From: Acholeplasmataceae bacterium
GTDB lineage: Bacteria; Bacillota_I; Bacilli_A; Acholeplasmatales; Acholeplasmataceae
Direction of reading: 5' to 3'
Length of the DNA: 64,000 nt
NCBI GenBank assembly: GCA_036758425.1
Contig: DAIOWP010000001.1
Span: 513-64,512 of the forward strand
Position numbers and translations under genes: made by a program. The notes beneath the pieces are model-generated. The model saw only the letters and a list, made by a program, of their open reading frames with translations. It did no database searches and was not told the origin of the DNA. Below, piece after piece: positions 3,894 through 38,394 of this stretch (positions within the stretch are counted from its first letter, which is position 1; each line of letters begins with the position of its first letter).

Positions 3894-4825
3894 GATAATC
3901 CCTCCTTGATTTCTTTGGCCATCAATCTGATTTTAACCAAACGATGGTTCATTCCTGATTTACTGATTTGGTCGTGATAGGTCTCTTCATATAAATCAAC
4001 AAGTTCCATCAAACTCGCTTCTGGGTATGCCTTTCTCAGTTCAATAACCTGTCTACTCTTTTCATCAATTTGACCTTTGGGTATATACTTCTCAACAATC
4101 TCAATATCTTTCATTTGCTCGTTGGCAGCAACAATAGCCTTTTTCTCGTTTGCGATCTCCATATTCATGACACGATTGATCGAATTATTAAAATCTCTTT
4201 TAATCCGAATATCTTCAAATTGAAAGAGTGCTTGTTGTGCACCAACGAGCTGCAAGAAATCACTGATTCCTTGTGCATCCTTGATGTAACAAATAAATCC
4301 TTGTCTTCGCTTTGTAATCTTAGCGTTTAACTCGAAGAAGTTCATGATACTCTGCAAGAATACCGCTTGATTTGCATCTTTGGTAAAGATTTCAAGATGA
4401 TACTCAGCTGTTTTGGGATGATTGACAGACCCTCCTGCAAGAAAAGCTGCACGAAGAAAGGCTTTTTTAGCTTCTGGGTTTGCTGTTGAAAGTTCTTCAT
4501 TATCGATGGGATCATCGAGTAATCCATGTTCATTGACGATATCTTCCACATTGGATTGAATACGGATGATGATGGCATTACGCTGGTTGAGTTTGTTTAG
4601 TTTTTGAGTGAGTAAACTTGTTTCTGATTGATACAGTGATCTGACCAGTTGCAAAAACCGTTTAGCAACGGTAGGATTGTTGGTTTTGAAATCAAGCATT
4701 TTTTTCTTGCTTTCAATATGAAATTCACCATTGAGATTGATGAACGCTGAAAACTCAGCAATCTGTTCTTCAAGTTCAATGGGAACTGTCACCAGTTCCT
4801 CTTTAACGATTTTTGCAAAGCTCAC
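3890..4825 (-). CDS. whiA: DNA-binding protein WhiA
   Basis: 311 aa. It has the N-terminal MSFAKIVKEEL motif, a degenerate LAGLIDADG-like middle (FLRAAFLAGGSVN) and a C-terminal HTH. It is syntenic with trxB. Confidence 0.88.
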   Translation of the reverse strand: MSFAKIVKEELVTVPIELEEQIAEFSAFINLNGEFHIESKKKMLDFKTNNPTVAKRFLQLVRSLYQSETSLLTQKLNKLNQRNAIIIRIQSNVEDIVNEHGLLDDPIDNEELSTANPEAKKAFLRAAFLAGGSVNHPKTAEYHLEIFTKDANQAVFLQSIMNFFELNAKITKRRQGFICYIKDAQGISDFLQLVGAQQALFQFEDIRIKRDFNNSINRVMNMEIANEKKAIVAANEQMKDIEIVEKYIPKGQIDEKSRQVIELRKAYPEASLMELVDLYEETYHDQISKSGMNHRLVKIRLMAKEIKEGLS

Positions 4826-32410: not shown

Positions 32411-33271
32411 AGCGCTTTTTTGTTCTTTGGGAATGAGAAATTCTTTGACAGCTTGTACCATTGGCTTTGGATCTAGAATCAATTGGAATCGATCGGTTTC
32501 AATGTATTGAAGTTTGGGATTGGTCATCATATCCACCAAGGCTTCAATCAGTGCACTACCCCCTAGGGGATCTTCATCATGACTATAAAAGAGTAGCGTA
32601 CGATAATTTAGAAACTTAAAATCCATTCTTTCAAACGCATAGTTTGAAAGTAAATCTCGGATGATTTCCATCTGTTGTCTTTCATCTGTTTCTGTGTATT
32701 TGCTGATTAAAAACTCGAAAAATTCAACGTCTTCTTCCCTTGATAATGCTTGATTAATTTGATCTAGTAGTGCTAGCTTGATGGTCGAAAGAGGCATGAT
32801 TTTTCGAAGATTTTTGAGTTCTTCGATCGTGTGCAAGATACCTTTAATGACATCTTCAGCATACTCATCACCCTTTTTAGGACGTGTGGGTGCATTATAG
32901 AGAATAAGGTTTTCGGTTTGACTTGCGTGATCACGAGCAAATGCTTGAGCAAGACCTCCACCATGGCTCATTCCTAAAAGTGAAACTTTTTTTAATCCAA
33001 TGAATTTAATGAGATATGATAAACAATCGATGATGCGTTCTACTGAAATCTTCATCGCTAAATCTTCAACGGTTAAGACTTGGAAACGTTCTGCGAGAGC
33101 TTCTTGAAGTTTAAAATAGGCTTCGGTTGTAAACATACTGCTGCCTACCCAAAGGACTATCGTCTTTTCACCAGTACCAAAAAGGCGATAGTTCATCACA
33201 TCACCACGATAGTGAAACGCCTTTTTAGGGTATTTTTTTGTGAAGACTTGATATTGATCAAGAATGGTCAA
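32405..33271 (-). CDS. Alpha/beta-fold hydrolase
   Basis: 288 aa with the nucleophile elbow GMSHGG. Substrate is unknown. Confidence 0.7.
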   Translation of the reverse strand: MTILDQYQVFTKKYPKKAFHYRGDVMNYRLFGTGEKTIVLWVGSSMFTTEAYFKLQEALAERFQVLTVEDLAMKISVERIIDCLSYLIKFIGLKKVSLLGMSHGGGLAQAFARDHASQTENLILYNAPTRPKKGDEYAEDVIKGILHTIEELKNLRKIMPLSTIKLALLDQINQALSREEDVEFFEFLISKYTETDERQQMEIIRDLLSNYAFERMDFKFLNYRTLLFYSHDEDPLGGSALIEALVDMMTNPKLQYIETDRFQLILDPKPMVQAVKEFLIPKEQKSAL

Positions 33272-33791
33272 TGTTCATCAATCCTTCCTGCTTGATACAC
33301 TTGAGGACAAAGAGTTCGCGTTCTATCCAGGTTGCAACATCACGATGTAACACAAGTGCTTGTTCGTTTTGATGAATGGCTTCATCGAGGGATAACCATA
33401 CCATATGATAACCATATTGTTTTTCATAATCATCGAGATTTAATGGATGAATGTCGTGACTGACTTGTGCAAGATAATAATAAGAAGTCATCTCAAAAAT
33501 CTGGTGATCATGAAACGAATCTTTTCTTTTTTCTTTAATCCAACCAAAGGGAATCATAGTAGATGAAAGAAGCGTTAATCCTGTTTCTTCTTTGACTTCA
33601 CGCATAAGACATTGCTCGTGTGTTTCATTCATTTCTAATCCACCACCAGGAAATTTGCATTCCATGAAAGTTGTGCTTTTAATCATGGCGAGTTTGTTAT
33701 GTTGAATGATGATTGCGCGAATTGCAGTTCGTGATTTCATCTGGGTGATACCTTCGTAATCCCGAACATCAAAGGTGTAAAGTTGTCTCAT
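33258..33791 (-). CDS. NUDIX hydrolase
   Basis: 177 aa with the Nudix box GGGLEMNETHEQCLMREVKEETGL. It overlaps the downstream hydrolase gene by 14 nt. Confidence 0.85.
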   Translation of the reverse strand: MRQLYTFDVRDYEGITQMKSRTAIRAIIIQHNKLAMIKSTTFMECKFPGGGLEMNETHEQCLMREVKEETGLTLLSSTMIPFGWIKEKRKDSFHDHQIFEMTSYYYLAQVSHDIHPLNLDDYEKQYGYHMVWLSLDEAIHQNEQALVLHRDVATWIERELFVLKCIKQEGLMNIDHS

Positions 33792-34045
33792 GATGCCATC
33801 TCCTAGGTATATCTATTTTATATGATGAATGCGTATTCAACAATAGAAATGTATAAAAATAACATGATTCAATGGTTTTTGTCGTAAAGAATGAAAATAT
33901 TTTGAAATATTTAAGCACTCTTTATAATGCTTAAGATTTTTATTATGCAATGCACATCATGAATCATTTTACACTCTTTTTGCTATTCCGATATTTTCAA
34001 CAATCGATCTTTAATACATCCTCATCAATTTTCGCACTAAATAAT

Positions 34046-34071
34046 AAAGGTCTGATATATGTATCAAACCT
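34046..34071 (-). terminator. Terminator-like hairpin, a near-copy of the tRNA-Ser(CGA) terminator (left boundary repeat of the cassette)
   Basis: Plus-strand text is AAAGGTCTGATA-ta-TGTATCAAACCT. On the minus strand the hairpin is followed by TTTATTATTT. It is 23/24 identical to 37279-37307 outside the loop. Confidence 0.6.
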
Positions 34072-34186
34072 TGGGTTTATCGATGTCTACGGTAAAAATT
34101 GATAATAAAATTTTAGTATCCCTCAATACTTGCTAAACAAAGGGGCAACTATCGAAAAGGTCTGTTATATTGACCTTATCAGTCAT

Positions 34187-34639
34187 TTAATCTCTATGAA
34201 TATATACTAATGAATCGCCAATATATTGGTTGACTTCTCTCCATTTAGCAGATTTAGCTCTTATCCAAGTTAACCAATCGGAATTTTGAGCAAACTCATC
34301 AATATCAACAATCTCATCAGCAACATAAATTCGATTATCTTTTTTCTTCATATGTAAATGAAAGATGACGGAATCGTAACCTTCTCTTGCAGGAACAAGA
34401 TTGAACCGTTCCACGCCTTCAAACACAATCTCTATCACCGAATGTTCTATATTTTGTCTTTGAATGATCATATGTACTTGACTTAAGTCGTCGAATGGCT
34501 TCATACTACAGTCTTCATTTACAAAAGATCCACTCGTATACTTAACCTCTTTAATACATGAATCATGAAAATGCCCAAAACGTGTTAAGACGTATTCGAT
34601 ATCTTTCTCATCATTAATAATGTTCCATTGACGATCCAT
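34187..34639 (-). CDS. Hypothetical cytoplasmic protein (150 aa), family unknown
   Basis: The ATG at 34639 is preceded by CAGGAGAA. It has its own extended -10 promoter and downstream hairpins. It has no TM helices and no motif I recognise. Confidence 0.6.
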   Translation of the reverse strand: MDRQWNIINDEKDIEYVLTRFGHFHDSCIKEVKYTSGSFVNEDCSMKPFDDLSQVHMIIQRQNIEHSVIEIVFEGVERFNLVPAREGYDSVIFHLHMKKKDNRIYVADEIVDIDEFAQNSDWLTWIRAKSAKWREVNQYIGDSLVYIHRD

Positions 34640-34707
34640 ATTGTTCTCCTGTTCTCTCATCAAATATTAAAATCACAATTTATCAAGAATCCTCGATTGT
34701 TTTTCAT

Positions 34708-34716
34708 ATTATACCA
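34708..34716 (-). promoter_or_regulatory. Extended -10 element (TGgTATAAT) for the 150-aa gene
   Basis: The minus strand reads TGGTATAAT about 70 nt upstream of the ATG at 34639. It lies downstream of the terminator at 34796-34821. Confidence 0.4.
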
Positions 34717-34795
34717 TGTATGATCGATTGTTCTCATTACTTACTTAATTGCTAAACAAGGGTATAATGTAGCTATTTGTTCACATTTTAAGCGC

Positions 34796-34821
34796 AAAAA
34801 AAGACTTGATAGTGATATCAA
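34796..34821 (-). terminator. Rho-independent terminator of the ATPase/TM-protein operon
   Basis: The minus strand reads CTTGATA-TCAC-TATCAAG (perfect 7-bp stem), then a T-rich tail (TCTTTTTTT). Confidence 0.65.
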
Positions 34822-34865
34822 GCCTATTCTAGTCAGATGTGTGATGCTACCTATTTTGATACAAA

Positions 34866-34913
34866 TTAGCACCCCATGAATTTTTTTAGCACCATTAACA
34901 GATTTTTAGCACC
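34866..34913 (+). repeat. Three TTAGCACC boxes spaced exactly 20 bp apart
   Basis: TTAGCACC starts at 34866, 34886 and 34906, each preceded by a T-run. They lie between the TM-gene stop (34962) and its terminator. Confidence 0.8.
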
Positions 34914-34961
34914 CCTTAATGTATCAATATTATTGACTAATATCGTGCTATTTTCCCATAT

Positions 34962-35561
34962 TTATTGTTTTGGAACTTGAATCTCATCGACCAGCATATA
35001 TACATCATCTATGATATCAAAGTAAAGATGTATTTCATATGTAAGATCATGATTTATTATTTTTACTATGAGTTCATTTCCGTTGTATTCACTTTCTATT
35101 TGATCAATTATCGATGGATAAATCATTGAGTTCAATTCAGCAATTGGATTAAGAAATACATCTGATTTAATTTCGTAGACATCATAATAATAGTCCATCA
35201 TACTTTGAGTTCTAACTAAAACAATATTAGATCCTTCTACTTCATATGCTTTACTTGCAAAACCAAAACCAATACCTAAAAATAGCAATAGTGCAAGACC
35301 AATACCAACAATGCCAGTGATTAAACTTATAACAAATTTTATGAGTGGCTTTATATTATAGTTCAAAAGAATTATACCGATTGTAATTAAATACAAGGCT
35401 ATGATTGGGTAAATGAACCAATCCATCGAAAATACATAAGTAAATAAATAGACAAACTCTATCTGTTTTAATATAACTAAAACAAAAAACATATAAAGTA
35501 AAAATATGAAACTCGCTGCAATCATAATAATACTATTCCGATTTAATATACTACCTTTCAT
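34962..35561 (-). CDS. Hypothetical membrane protein with four predicted TM helices and a ~95-aa soluble C-terminal domain
   Basis: 199 aa. The ATG at 35561 is preceded by AAGGGGGAATGGGGA. It starts 50 nt downstream of the ATPase gene. Confidence 0.65.
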   Translation of the reverse strand: MKGSILNRNSIIMIAASFIFLLYMFFVLVILKQIEFVYLFTYVFSMDWFIYPIIALYLITIGIILLNYNIKPLIKFVISLITGIVGIGLALLLFLGIGFGFASKAYEVEGSNIVLVRTQSMMDYYYDVYEIKSDVFLNPIAELNSMIYPSIIDQIESEYNGNELIVKIINHDLTYEIHLYFDIIDDVYMLVDEIQVPKQ

Positions 35562-35611
35562 TATTTCCCCATTCCCCCTTAATTTTTTTGGTTAAATTTT
35601 TATGCAATACA

Positions 35612-36958
35612 CTACAAAAACATCGTCATATAGACCGGCAAATAAATAACATCATCTTTTTGAGTCAAATCTTTTGTATGAATGATGTATTTTTTACCAA
35701 GTTTGTCTATGAACTTGTTACTAAACTTGTCCATTGATGACGTTGTATAGTTTTTACCCGACTTAACTTCAACTGGCGATATTTTAGTTGGTTTAGATTG
35801 ATCTATAATTAGAAAATCTATTTCCATCGTATTTGACCTGTCTTGATTATCTGCTCTTGAGTAAAAATATAGTTTCTTATTTAAGGCAGTAAACATTTGT
35901 GCAACGATATTTTCAAATATCATGCCGTTGTTAACTTCAAGGCGATCTTGAATAATGGCTTTTGCTACTTCTTGATGCATGTCATCATTTTCACTGAATG
36001 CTTGGCTTAAGAGTAACCCAGTGTCTGCCATATACATTTTAAGTGTCAACCTGTCACGATTTAAAGATAATCCAAAATTAGGATCTGATGCATTAAAGCA
36101 TACATTTGTAATCATCGCTTCATCCAACCATGTAAAAGCATCCTCATAATCTCTAAATCTCGCATCTTTCGATAATGAACTTAACATAAACTTCTTTTCG
36201 TGTTTTGATAATTGACTAGGAATCTCATCAAAAATACTGAGTACTTTATGTTCATATCCTTTAGCATATTTTGAAATGTCATTCTTATATAATTTTAGGA
36301 TGTCTCTTTTAATTCGGTCAACTTTTGTATAATCATTAGTATTTAAGAATTCTATAACTGCTTGAGGCATACCACCAATTAACAAGTACTGTCTAAATAG
36401 TTTCATAATCGTTGAATGAATTTCAGCTAGAGGTTTTAAAGATTCAAAATGCTTTTTTATAAGAGGAATAACATCACCTCTACCAAGCGCTATACAAAAT
36501 TCTTCGAAATCAAGGGGATACATTTTGATTGCTCTTTCTTCTGAAGGTATTAATATGCTTTCAACATTACGTTTGATGGATAATAAAGAACCTGTCTCGA
36601 TATAATCATAACGATTGTCATTCACTAGATGTTTTATCAGTTGTCTTGCTTGAGGAAAAAGTTGCACTTCATCAAATACAATAAGTGACTGTCTTTCATA
36701 AAGTGTCGTCCCAGTGATTGATGTTAGGAAAAAGAAAAAATCATCTAAATTCGATGCGTATCTTTTGAAAAGCGATTTAATTTCATCACTAGCAATACTA
36801 AAATCAATCAGTATGTATGATTTGTATTCTTTTTTTGCGAAAGCTTCAACCACTGTGCTTTTTCCAACACGTCTTGCACCTTCGATGAGTAAAGCAGTTT
36901 TACCATTTTCATTTTTCCAGGAAAGCAGTTGCTTATATATTTTACGCTCTAACTTCAT
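35612..36958 (-). CDS. AAA+ ATPase of the COG1373 type (AAA_14 plus DUF4143-like architecture) with a PD-(D/E)xK-like C-terminal motif
   Basis: Walker A is GARRVGKST and Walker B is LIVFDEVQ. The C-terminus reads EIDFLIID...SPVEVKSG (D...ExK). The ATG at 36958 is preceded by AGAGGTGA. Confidence 0.8.
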   Translation of the reverse strand: MKLERKIYKQLLSWKNENGKTALLIEGARRVGKSTVVEAFAKKEYKSYILIDFSIASDEIKSLFKRYASNLDDFFFFLTSITGTTLYERQSLIVFDEVQLFPQARQLIKHLVNDNRYDYIETGSLLSIKRNVESILIPSEERAIKMYPLDFEEFCIALGRGDVIPLIKKHFESLKPLAEIHSTIMKLFRQYLLIGGMPQAVIEFLNTNDYTKVDRIKRDILKLYKNDISKYAKGYEHKVLSIFDEIPSQLSKHEKKFMLSSLSKDARFRDYEDAFTWLDEAMITNVCFNASDPNFGLSLNRDRLTLKMYMADTGLLLSQAFSENDDMHQEVAKAIIQDRLEVNNGMIFENIVAQMFTALNKKLYFYSRADNQDRSNTMEIDFLIIDQSKPTKISPVEVKSGKNYTTSSMDKFSNKFIDKLGKKYIIHTKDLTQKDDVIYLPVYMTMFL

Positions 36959-36985
36959 CAGGATCACCTCTTACAACTCTATTAT

Positions 36986-37035
36986 ACACGTTTTTTGATT
37001 TTTAAAACAATATATTTAACACGTTTTTTGATTTT
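36986..37035 (+). repeat. Perfect 17-bp direct repeat ACACGTTTTTTGATTTT (two copies, 33 bp apart) over the ATPase promoter
   Basis: Copies lie at 36986-37002 and 37019-37035. On the minus strand the proximal copy ends in CGTGTATAAT, so it contributes the -10 hexamer. Confidence 0.85.
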
Positions 37036-37120
37036 ATAATGTTTTCTTATATCACTTTATTGAAAATTTACTTGTAGGTATCAATATATCTACTTCGAGT
37101 TAGCTACTCTCAACATTATA

Positions 37121-37225
37121 TAATCGTGTCAATTGTTAGGTAATCGTGTAAATGATTGAATTATCGTGTGAAGTGGTAGTTAGTCATTTATAATATAGAA
37201 GTATATTTACTTGATTTCACGATTA
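37121..37225 (+). repeat. Three TWATCGTGT boxes at exact 20-bp phasing plus one inverted copy
   Basis: TAATCGTGT starts at 37121 and 37141 and TTATCGTGT at 37161. The inverse CACGATTA lies at 37218-37225. Confidence 0.8.
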
Positions 37226-37278
37226 ATTAATAGTCTAAAATTCTGAATATAGGAAAAAAATCTCCTTTCTGTATGAAA

Positions 37279-37307
37279 AAAGGCCTGATACGAATTGTAT
37301 CAAACCT
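37279..37307 (-). terminator. Rho-independent terminator of tRNA-Ser(CGA) (right boundary repeat of the cassette)
   Basis: The minus strand reads AGGTTTGATAC-aattc-GTATCAGGCCT followed by T6, 13 nt after the tRNA CCA end. Confidence 0.7.
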
Positions 37308-37319
37308 ATGCATTCAATA

Positions 37320-37411
37320 TGGCGGAAGAGATGGGATTCGAACCCACGTGCCCTTTTTGAGGGCAACTGCATTTCGAGGGCAGCTCGTTACAACCACTTC
37401 GATACTCTTCC
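37320..37411 (-). tRNA. tRNA-Ser (anticodon CGA)
   Basis: 92 nt with encoded CCA. The acceptor stem is GGAAGAG/CTCTTCC, the variable arm is long (GTTGCCCTCAAAAAGGGCAC) and the T-arm is GTGGGTTCGAATCCCAT. The anticodon loop is CTCGAAA, with one C-U mismatch closing the stem. Confidence 0.85.
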
Positions 37412-37416
37412 GTATG

Positions 37417-38394
37417 TTAAGGATGCGCGTTAAAGAACGCCTCCACATAACCTTTAAATTCTTCTTTTGTTTTCGCTGTTGAAAGTTGTTTTCTTAATTC
37501 AGACGCGTGGTCAATACCTTTGAGATACCATGGACCATGGCTTCTCATTTCTAAAACAGCGGTGTGTTCACCTTTTAATTCTACCAAAGAATCAAGATGT
37601 TTCAACATCATCTCTTTAATTTCTTGATGGGTTGGCCTTGGTAGGTGGGTTCCATCTTTTAAATATTGATCAATCTCTCTAAAAATCCAAGGATTTCCTA
37701 ATGCACCACGACCAATCATTACAGCATCACACCCTGTATAATCGAGCATACGTTTTGCTGATGGTCCATCGATGACATCACCGTTTCCAATAACTGGAAT
37801 GTTCACGGCTTGTTTAACAGCCTTAATCACATCAAGATCGGCGTGACCACTATATCCTTGTGAGCGCGTTCTTGCATGTACAGTAATCGCACTAGCACCT
37901 GCTTTTTCAATTCGTTCGGCAACTTCAACTGCATTGATGGATTGATGATCCCATCCTGAACGTATTTTCACAGTGACAGGCTTTGAGACCGTTTTTACGA
38001 TTTCACTGACTATTTCATAGATTAAATCTGGATTCTTCATCAGTGATGCTCCAGCTTGAGCCTTGATAGCAACCTTAGGAACAGGGCATCCCATATTAAT
38101 ATCAATGATATCGCAATTGGAGTTTTCATCAATATATTTTGCAGCTTGAACCATGGTTTCTAAATCTGAACCAAAGATTTGTTGTGCCATGGGTTTTTCA
38201 ATGTCTGTCATATAGAGAAGTTTTTTTGTCTTTTCATTTGCATACATCAAACCCTTATCTGAAACCATCTCTGCAAAGACTAATCCTGCACCATAACGTC
38301 TCGTTAAAATACGAAAAGGAGAGTTTGATACACCCGCCATCGGCGCTAAAATAATTTGATTTTCTATGGTTAAATTGCCGATTTTAAAGGCCAT
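37417..38394 (-). CDS. dusB: tRNA-dihydrouridine synthase B
   Basis: TIM-barrel Dus motifs are present (LAPMAGVSN, DINMGCP, TVHARTR). The ATG at 38394 is preceded by AGGTGA. Confidence 0.9.
   Translation of the reverse strand: MAFKIGNLTIENQIILAPMAGVSNSPFRILTRRYGAGLVFAEMVSDKGLMYANEKTKKLLYMTDIEKPMAQQIFGSDLETMVQAAKYIDENSNCDIIDINMGCPVPKVAIKAQAGASLMKNPDLIYEIVSEIVKTVSKPVTVKIRSGWDHQSINAVEVAERIEKAGASAITVHARTRSQGYSGHADLDVIKAVKQAVNIPVIGNGDVIDGPSAKRMLDYTGCDAVMIGRGALGNPWIFREIDQYLKDGTHLPRPTHQEIKEMMLKHLDSLVELKGEHTAVLEMRSHGPWYLKGIDHASELRKQLSTAKTKEEFKGYVEAFFNAHP

Follow-up and report, generated by a model that had tools for sequence, protein, structure and literature searches.

Two tandem recombinase-less cassettes at the CCA end of a tRNA-Ser(CGA) gene in an Acholeplasmataceae bacterium, probably accreted by serine-recombinase integration

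Locus and composition

We studied the DNA directly downstream of the tRNA-Ser(CGA) gene in a stretch of 64,000 nucleotides (nt) of contig DAIOWP010000001.1 (assembly GCA_036758425.1) from an Acholeplasmataceae bacterium. This stretch is referred to as the window, and all coordinates are window positions. The region of interest holds three open reading frames (ORF1 to ORF3) and three hairpins of one family (H1 to H3), which are distributed over two cassettes in tandem and a short remnant. On the minus strand, the genes follow in the order Hsp33, dusB, tRNA-Ser(CGA), ORF3, ORF2, ORF1, NUDIX, alpha/beta hydrolase and HflX. The tRNA gene (37320..37411, minus strand) was identified from its sequence by ARAGORN, has an encoded CCA and reaches 48.9 bits with the Rfam tRNA model. 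It is the only match in an Rfam scan of 33500-37500, i.e., no other known RNA element was found in that interval.

An earlier sequence-only reading of the window had described an AT-rich region with three minus-strand ORFs and long non-coding spacers. This description holds. The guanine-cytosine (GC) content of 34084-37319 is 0.303, compared to 0.381 for the whole window and to 0.378 and 0.389 for the flanks. Only 0.16% of the windows of equal size have a GC content this low, and the minimum-GC window of the 64 kb begins at 33851. The spacers without coding between the three ORFs measure about 300-400 nt.

The same reading had placed two near-identical hairpins at the borders of the region, and both are found as it placed and read them. 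Positions 37279-37307 read AAAGGCCTGATAcgaatTGTATCAAACCT (H1) and positions 34046-34071 read AAAGGTCTGATAtaTGTATCAAACCT (H3), with 23/24 identical stem and flank positions. The 12-mer TGTATCAAACCT occurs twice in the window (0.014 copies expected) and AAAGGYCTGATA likewise (0.023 expected). H1 (37281..37307, minus strand) is the terminator of the tRNA. Both H1 and H3 are terminator-like on the minus strand, i.e., the strand of the tRNA, with 11 pairs followed by a T-rich tail. H3 and its 11-nt flank (34047..34083, minus strand) directly follow the CA that ends the second cassette. A third full hairpin of the family, H2 (34802..34825, minus strand), is present at 34825-34802 as AGGCTTGATAtcacTATCAAGTCT plus a run of seven T and is preceded by the flank TCTGACTAGAAT. 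Within the 64 kb, the exact arm motif AGGYYTGATA is confined to these three hairpins. The half-copy that had been noted at 34156-34170 does exist as a sequence, but it is an arm of a separate hairpin at 34178-34157.

Boundaries of the cassettes

The sequence-only reading had proposed a single 3.2 kb cassette bracketed by hairpins; instead, we find two cassettes that are joined head to tail and have CA boundaries. Cassette 1 (34838..37319, minus strand, 2482 nt), as delimited by a script that pairs left ends (LE) with right ends (RE), comprises a type B left end, ORF3, ORF2 and a type 2 right end. Cassette 2 (34084..34837, minus strand, 754 nt) comprises a type A left end, ORF1 and a degenerate right end. 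A CA is present at every junction, namely at 37321-37320, where it belongs to the CCA of tRNA-Ser(CGA), at 34839-34838 and at 34085-34084.

The left ends were located with two profiles, LE-A and LE-B, that were built from foreign (metagenome) copies only. LE-B matches 37311-37131 (E=1.1e-16, envelope 37319-37104) and LE-A matches 34837-34749 from model position 1 (E=2.4e-8), while neither profile has a further match anywhere in the 64 kb. In BLASTN, cassette 2 aligns with many LE-A copies from query position 1. Loci fetched for comparison are denoted by L and a number. H2, its flank and about 60 nt after it correspond to the sequence directly after the tRNA-Ser CCA in L013, L019, L020 and L022, as well as in L011, which is a contig of the same species as the window. 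In L017 and L018, the sequence after the tRNA is the counterpart of H1 and of what lies downstream of it.

For the right ends, the 27-mer at 34864-34838 (terminus of cassette 1) agrees with external right ends in 25/27 positions, which is the best of about 128,000 window positions. The 27-mer at 34110-34084 (terminus of cassette 2) agrees in 22/27 and ranks second, and the next best match in the window reaches 20/27. That is, both ends of cassette 1 are intact, while cassette 2 has an intact left end and a right end that is recognisable but degenerate.

The cassette ends carry short repeats, i.e., iterons, among them those of the ACACGATT and GGGGTGCTAA types. Behind H1, three ACACGAT iterons are read from the sequence at 37169-37163, 37149-37143 and 37129-37123 (span 37123..37169, minus strand), 20 nt apart. 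The triplet is also present in the type-B left ends of L101, L146, L166, L227 and L229. The right end of cassette 1 (RE2; 34838..34915, minus strand) has GGGGTGCTAA-type iterons at 34915, 34895 and 34875, again spaced 20 nt, followed by TTGTATCAAAATAGGTAGCATCACACA. The same RE2 is found in L102, L227 and L229, and in L013 and L014 the block precedes internal hairpins. A profile of the other right-end type, RE1, matches the RE2 of cassette 1 with E=0.011. Cassette 2 has an inner right-end hairpin and TTTTCGATAGTTGCCCC (34140..34178, minus strand; hairpin 34178-34157). This hairpin aligns with a conserved segment in L146, L109, L206, L227 and L019.

From these boundaries, the circle junction of an excised cassette 1 is predicted to read ...GGTAGCATCACACA|TATTGAATGCATAGG and that of cassette 2 ...TTACCGTAGACA|TCTGACTAGAATAGG. 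The predicted excision scars are ...CTTCCGCCA|TCTGACTAGAATAGGCTTGATA if cassette 1 is lost and ...CTTCCGCCA|TCGATAAACCCAAGG if both are lost.

Empty site and variation among relatives

All relatives identified by DusB belong to the Acholeplasmataceae and there to the Mariniplasma/Peloplasma type. The closest species (L012, DusB 93% identical) has the order dusB, tRNA-Ser, 141 nt, NUDIX, i.e., the site is empty, and its tRNA-Ser terminator is unrelated to H1/H3. Other relatives have 0.5-3.2 kb of unrelated genes between tRNA-Ser and the downstream genes, and in more distant relatives HflX follows immediately after the tRNA. Since the closest species is empty and the other relatives vary, the three ORFs represent an insertion at a variable site. 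The insertion on the 3' side of tRNA-Ser(CGA) that had been suspected is thus borne out.

The source of the hairpins has to be seen differently from the sequence-only reading, which took them for a duplication of the native tRNA terminator. The element-free relatives have a different tRNA-Ser terminator, and H1, H2 and H3 appear, from their sequence relations, to be the terminators and half-sites of element left ends that were brought in by the elements rather than copies of a native terminator. For H3, BLASTN of the fetched loci shows homology that stops at the hairpin and none beyond it. Because relatives without the element carry another native type of tRNA-Ser terminator, H3 is probably element-derived, i.e., the vestigial left end of a third, decayed element; a displaced native terminator is less likely.

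Within the species, four assemblies carry the same two cassettes with 99-99.7% identity. Compared to L002 and L004, differences cluster in ORF1 (34250-34750, 27 in 500 nt) and in NUDIX (33250-33750, 17 in 500 nt). Elsewhere in the 9 kb, the number of differences per 250 nt never exceeds 6 and is mostly 0-2, with hardly any in cassette 1. L011 has a type-A left end instead of H1 directly after the tRNA. Among the short metagenome contigs of the species, L007, L008 and L010 stop exactly at the tRNA 3' end and L009 stops in the H1 loop. Together with L011, this pattern is compatible with population heterogeneity at the junction, without being proof of it. L005 breaks within the tRNA gene, about 36 nt before its end.

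A widespread family of ends

A scan for composite iterons yielded 8 viral-contig loci and at least 120 metagenome loci (gut, rumen, digester, groundwater). In these loci, at least 13 different tRNAs have a left end behind their encoded CCA, in every case on the same strand as the tRNA. The layout of the left ends is a T, about 11 nt, a hairpin of the GGTYTGATAC type, a T run, a spacer and iterons, with the first iteron 186-187 nt past the tRNA end in most type-A copies. The 60 distinct right ends share a 27-nt terminus that starts with TTGTAT and ends with CA, and what comes next is always a further left end or hairpin. Two subfamily pairings are observed. LE-A goes with RE1, in which ACACGATTT and GGGGTGCTAAAA repeats are interleaved every 31-32 nt, and LE-B goes with RE2, where the left end has three copies of ACACGAT and the right end two to three of GGGGTGCTAA, with a spacing of 20 nt.

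Only CA is common to both element junctions, in the window as well as in the 60 external right-end junctions, and no long direct repeat is found. For the exact breakpoint, we compared the flank type left of the hairpin with the sequence type right of it, which are concordant in 36 cases and discordant in 1. Because both types co-occur 36 to 1, the breakpoint is placed at the CA and not in the hairpin loop. A crossover in the loop is ruled out by the same counts.

When right end, CA and left end are joined, the result is a dyad-symmetric site of roughly 50 bp with 14.2/26 matches, compared to 7.6 +/- 1.6 in 2000 column shuffles (maximum 13.1). The consensus half-sites of the joined ends are TCTAAGGTTAAGAGTTTTAATACAAT and TCTAACTAGAATAGGTCTGATACAAT, with conserved blocks at positions 1-5 and 13-26. 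In cassette 1, TTTGATACAA occupies positions 16-25 in both halves. The left arm of each hairpin coincides with the outer block of the P' half-site (37319-37294 in the case of H1). Such a layout of conserved blocks is expected for the half-sites of serine integrases. The literature on cassette chromosomes leads to the same expectation for serine recombinases (PMC6222049).

The likeness between the tRNA half and the element half of the site is not above chance (P=0.19; best at shift -5). We thus dropped the idea that the two halves resemble each other, which had been examined also with the 5-bp shift known for serine-integrase attB.

These data also bear on the repeats themselves. As proposed, the hairpins belong to att-like ends, but they are not target-duplicated direct repeats. 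Occurrence at many unrelated loci had been named as a sign of a dispersed terminator family. The hairpin does occur at many loci in other genomes, yet always in an element end beside a tRNA CCA or a right end. It is thus both dispersed and att-related. For the DNA covered, a dispersed terminator family like the repetitive extragenic palindromes is rejected: within the 64 kb the hairpin is found at this locus only, and every copy from other genomes is part of a left end, with a tRNA CCA or a right end just before it.

Complete cassettes from left end to right end were found 15 times (0.84-4.5 kb), and a recombinase fragment is present in only one of them. Some right ends (L093, L104, L150, L155, L172, L204 and L218) continue with CA|G and an element of another kind. 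The latter encodes a 572-residue serine recombinase on the other strand as well as P-type ATPase and MerA-like cargo. It looks as though the same dinucleotide had served a second serine-recombinase element as landing site.

Serine recombinases and phage relatives

The most recurrent protein family in iteron-bearing loci is a large serine recombinase (25 loci) with Resolvase, Recombinase and zinc-ribbon domains. Neither a tyrosine integrase nor a HUH transposase is among the recurrent proteins of these loci. The recombinases often form a tandem pair of about 440 and 527 amino acids (aa) that ends 60-220 nt before the right-end iterons. The best NCBIfam match of the pair is CcrB, with about 150 bits versus a cut-off of 900. 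Related elements with a recombinase are found in L095, L096, L097, L106, L137, L201 and PV036447.1, and recombinase fragments of 127-238 aa lie beside right ends in several loci.

Two of these elements are informative with regard to autonomous relatives. In L096/L220, genes for tape measure, distal tail and holin mark a tailed prophage, whose terminal part consists of the recombinase pair, cargo, right end and CA; another LE-A cassette comes next. The Anaeroplasmataceae phage NatCom_34063 (PV036447.1, Ca. Heliusvirales) was found via a protein search with the recombinase, while a search with the joined ends as DNA gave no match among GenBank phages. Its record opens with CACCA|T, hairpin and three iterons and closes with recombinase pair, three iterons and TTGTATTAAAATAGTTGTGTAAATACA. 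Beside the phage left end lies a gene for a small HTH protein. The Oscillospiraceae phage PV036425.1 (L234/L235) has a similar right-end serine recombinase and shows no tRNA-CCA, hairpin or iteron architecture. Since this member is without it, the end architecture is not general to Ca. Heliusvirales.

Cargo of the cassettes

ORF3 (35612..36958, minus strand) encodes a 448-aa ATPase with AAA_14 and DUF4143 domains (Pfam 8.4e-24 and 7.7e-23). It matches PDC-S01 of PADLOC with E=4e-117, which makes it a candidate for a single-gene anti-phage system of the PDC-S01 type. Just upstream of ORF3, a 23-nt direct repeat (AAAATCAAAAAACGTGT..) occurs twice (36980-37035), overlaps the likely -10 and is kept in the L223 cassette copy (4570-4625); the repeat may be an operator. 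ORF2 (34962..35561, minus strand) encodes a predicted membrane protein of 199 aa and has no nucleotide match in any fetched locus of another species. ORF1 (34187..34639, minus strand; 150 aa) belongs to an orphan family confined to Acholeplasmataceae, for which a homologue search returned 16 proteins, all unnamed. Neither ORF1 nor ORF2 has a family match in Pfam, NCBIfam or PADLOC. The AlphaFold2 model of ORF1 is weak (confident in 1/5 runs), and the PDB entry that it matches best (E=0.011) is itself an uncharacterised protein.

The same cargo recurs at other positions. In L223-L226 (DusB 81% identical in aa, dusB 76% in nt), the tRNA-Ser(CGA) array opens with a Fic cassette, which is followed by an LE-B cassette. 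The LE-B and ATPase of L223 align with window positions 37311-35612 at 87.5% nt identity (95% aa for ORF3, in L223/L224). This homology to cassette 1 begins at the left end and ends at the ORF3 stop. The LE-B and ORF3 copy sits at a different array position than in the window. In 4642-6456 of L223-L226, an ORF1-type gene starts 6 nt after the ORF3-type ATPase, where the window has ORF2 and the cassette junction in between; judged from this arrangement, the gene following the ATPase may be a variable partner. ORF1-type genes are furthermore found in a one-gene LE-B/RE2 cassette directly after tRNA-Ser(GGA) (L229-L231) and in a two-gene cassette at an internal position (L227).

More generally, genes for type I, II and III restriction-modification, JetA, AbiTii and AAA_14/DUF4143 are found as cargo behind left ends, as are ordinary accessory genes. 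Regulator genes with AlbA_2/HATPase_c_4 are frequent as first cargo gene after left ends. They are preceded by 7-8 repeats of their own of the (A/G)TAGTGACAA type (L022 11440-11530; L229 4490-4570).

Interpretation and alternatives

Given these observations, the region is probably a tandem array of two recombinase-less integrative cassettes plus the vestige of a third at the CCA of tRNA-Ser(CGA), accreted by serine-recombinase integration. We infer that serine recombinases are the acting enzymes and that, as the sequence breakpoints suggest, crossover takes place at the CA; the cassettes may still be able to move.

Each cassette has one half of a phage-type attachment site at either border. 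On the left, this is the half-site after the CA, whose outer block is the arm of the terminator hairpin, followed by iterons and the promoter region of the cargo. Because this half-site includes the terminator-hairpin arm, the tRNA keeps a terminator. The right end consists of iterons and the 27-nt half-site ending in CA. The most likely mechanism is the following. Large serine recombinases of related prophages, usually encoded as a tandem pair beside the right end, would recombine attP, i.e., the joined ends with their dyad symmetry around CA, with the CA of the tRNA CCA. Repeated integrations and the loss of phage genes would then lead to stacked cassettes that keep both ends. A helper recombinase could excise or capture such cassettes in trans, as for cis-mobilizable elements (CIMEs) and for elements of the staphylococcal cassette chromosome (SCC) type without ccr genes.

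Several points weigh against integration by serine recombinases. No recombinase is found in the 64-kb window, as the sequence-only reading had already stated, or in the dusB loci of relatives (L001-L091). Ca. Heliusvirales phages of Oscillospiraceae have similar recombinases and are without these ends. The tRNA half of the site is no more similar to the element half than expected by chance (P=0.19), which gives no account of how many different tRNAs would be recognised, and the CA crossover is read solely from homology breakpoints. Furthermore, the right end of cassette 2 is degenerate, and the two cassettes shared by four assemblies of the species could be fixed remnants just as well as mobile units. 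As a rule, serine integrases work without accessory sites and recombine attL and attR poorly. The textbook mechanism accounts neither for the iterons nor for the formation of arrays.

Part of these points would be accounted for if the cassettes were inert scars, i.e., prophages that decayed in place, whose ends are conserved through recency only and of which nothing moves. We regard this as possible, though doubtful. The missing recombinase in the window, the degenerate right end of cassette 2 and the shared arrangement in the four assemblies agree with it, and the recombinase fragments near right ends in several loci imply that decay occurs. It has difficulties with cassette 1 and 14 other small cassettes from distant habitats, all of which have both ends intact, and with the same cargo families appearing in cassettes at different tRNAs and array positions. 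LE-B and ORF3 are, moreover, far more alike between two species than the dusB genes, L011 has another arrangement although it belongs to the window's own species, and a number of contigs stop precisely where the tRNA ends.

In the opposite direction, integration by serine recombinases could be extended to a general scheme, which we put forward as speculation and consider rather unlikely. In this scheme, practically any tRNA gene would offer its CCA end as landing site to the serine recombinases of Mollicutes-type temperate phages. Helper phages would excise, replicate or package recombinase-less cassettes, often with defence genes, which would for this reason keep complete ends and iteron arrays. 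The outcome would be a trading of cargo like that of phage satellites or integrons, both among tRNA loci and from one species to another.

A hotspot of homologous recombination, in which shared spacers and terminators or flanking core genes swap cargo with no site-specific enzyme, is improbable. The locus does vary across the family between conserved dusB and NUDIX/HflX, and one or two chimeric left ends change type at the hairpin (L166, L114). Many defence hotspots of other bacteria are also without mobility genes. Such exchange would hardly place a left end against the CCA of at least 13 different tRNAs with a nucleotide-sharp breakpoint and junctions always at CA. Nor does it fit the dyad symmetry of the joined ends or the fact that these ends bound a complete prophage with a serine recombinase pair.

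The sequence-only reading itself, i.e., one 3.2 kb island with a duplicated native terminator and with H1/H3 as direct att repeats, is very improbable by now. The 23/24 identity of H1 and H3 and the empty site in L012 are in its favour. However, the third hairpin and the internal right-end/left-end junction at 34838/34837 split the region, and homology to other cassettes begins and ends at internal boundaries. The hairpin family is also found behind many tRNAs in other genomes, and the native tRNA-Ser terminators of relatives are of another type.

Single-strand HUH transposition (IS200/IS605-like) of non-autonomous cassettes with subterminal hairpins to a position 3' of CA deserves the least credence: it would agree with insertion right after a fixed short sequence in which the element also ends, with the subterminal hairpin at the left end and with the lack of a long target duplication, but a comparable right-end hairpin is missing, the recurrent proteins include serine recombinases and no HUH transposase, and the ends have the dyad symmetry expected of serine recombinases. 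The inverted-repeat-like ends also made us consider a DDE transposon that has terminal inverted repeats and duplicates 2 bp of its target. This reading is rejected, since there is no recurrent transposase and the iterons have the same direction at both ends.

Comparison with known systems

The closest known cases are, in our best reading, ccr-less SCC elements in composite islands and CIMEs stacked by accretion (PMC6222049, PMC5704250). This assignment is by analogy. SCC/SCCmec and the Enterococcus cassette chromosome (PMC6222049) resemble the elements studied here in that autonomous relatives have tandem large serine recombinases (CcrAB in SCC), att sites are dyad-symmetric and integration takes place at the very 3' end of a conserved gene, which stays active. 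Tandem arrays that include recombinase-less members and a highly variable cargo are further common features. The target differs, i.e., the CCA end of many tRNA genes here versus the rlmH 3' end in SCC, and so does the junction, which is CA flanked by TCTAA here versus the SCC core TATCATAA (PMC6222049). The window has no ccrA/ccrB (or ccrC), and related recombinases reach only about 150 bits with the CcrB model. In addition, the ends here carry iteron arrays and a built-in terminator, and autonomous members are tailed prophages. Membership in the SCC family is rejected given the different site, the different core and the weak recombinase similarity.

CIMEs have lost their integration genes, keep attL and attR and stack in tandem with related elements (PMC5704250). 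The cassettes in the window likewise are without integration or transfer genes, keep both att ends and lie in tandem at one chromosomal site. However, described CIMEs derive from integrative and conjugative or integrative and mobilizable elements that use tyrosine integrases, and they duplicate part of the target gene (PMC5704250). In our case, the ends belong to the serine-recombinase type and share no more than a dinucleotide, and the parents are phages. A prophage and a cassette in tandem are seen in L096/L220, while the 64 kb of the window are without an autonomous element.

Among serine-integrase temperate phages (Ca. Heliusvirales of Mollicutes-like hosts), NatCom_34063 shares the end layout, i.e., CCA|T, hairpin and iterons on the left and recombinase pair, iterons and the TTGTAT...CA terminus on the right, whereas the elements of the window are 0.75 and 2.5 kb long and without phage or recombinase genes. 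The papers found on Ca. Heliusvirales make no mention of tRNA, integrases or att sites.

The tRNA islands and tycheposon-like arrays made by tyrosine integrases are similar with regard to tRNA landing sites, degenerate cargo remnants and their role as hotspots of accessory and defence genes. They differ since we find no tyrosine integrase here and no duplicated tRNA 3' segment at the far boundary. Furthermore, the insertion lies after the CCA instead of within the tRNA gene, and it is not limited to a single tRNA species. A tRNA island made by a tyrosine integrase is therefore rejected (right ends without tRNA fragment, no recurrent tyrosine integrase). Integrons also have short, mostly recombinase-less cassettes in one orientation, a structured recombination site and one entry point. 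The elements here show no IntI, attI or attC, have their own promoters and iterons, and their associated enzyme is a serine recombinase. An integron cassette array is thus rejected as well, given that the ends are those of the LE/RE family.

Serine-recombinase elements, recombinase-less remnants bounded by att sites and tRNA-linked hotspots are known kinds. The literature search, which covered the searched library only, returned no account of serine recombinases that target tRNA CCA ends and none of such cassettes. That is, the combination of a CCA site at many tRNAs, a built-in terminator, iteron-laden arms and kilobase-sized cassettes, often with defence genes, is without description in this library.

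The elements can be recognised from sequence by a left end that adjoins a tRNA CCA and by a right end whose terminus is TTGTAT(N19)CA. This signature gives precise boundaries of prophages and islands in genomes and metagenome-assembled genomes of Acholeplasmatales and Anaeroplasmatales, and the element also accounts for assembly breaks at the respective tRNAs. It points to an exchange of defence genes in kilobase units among small-genome, wall-less Bacillota. If serine integrases indeed act at many tRNA CCA ends, this would be an unusual target that is generic, conserved and harmless, and as such relevant for work on recombinase mechanism and for genome engineering.

Sequence variation in the tRNA gene

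The tRNA-Ser(CGA) gene of the window differs from its counterparts within the species. At 37354, in the variable arm, it has an A (minus strand), where all same-species contigs (L002-L011) have a G, and this A makes the G-C run of the variable arm shorter.

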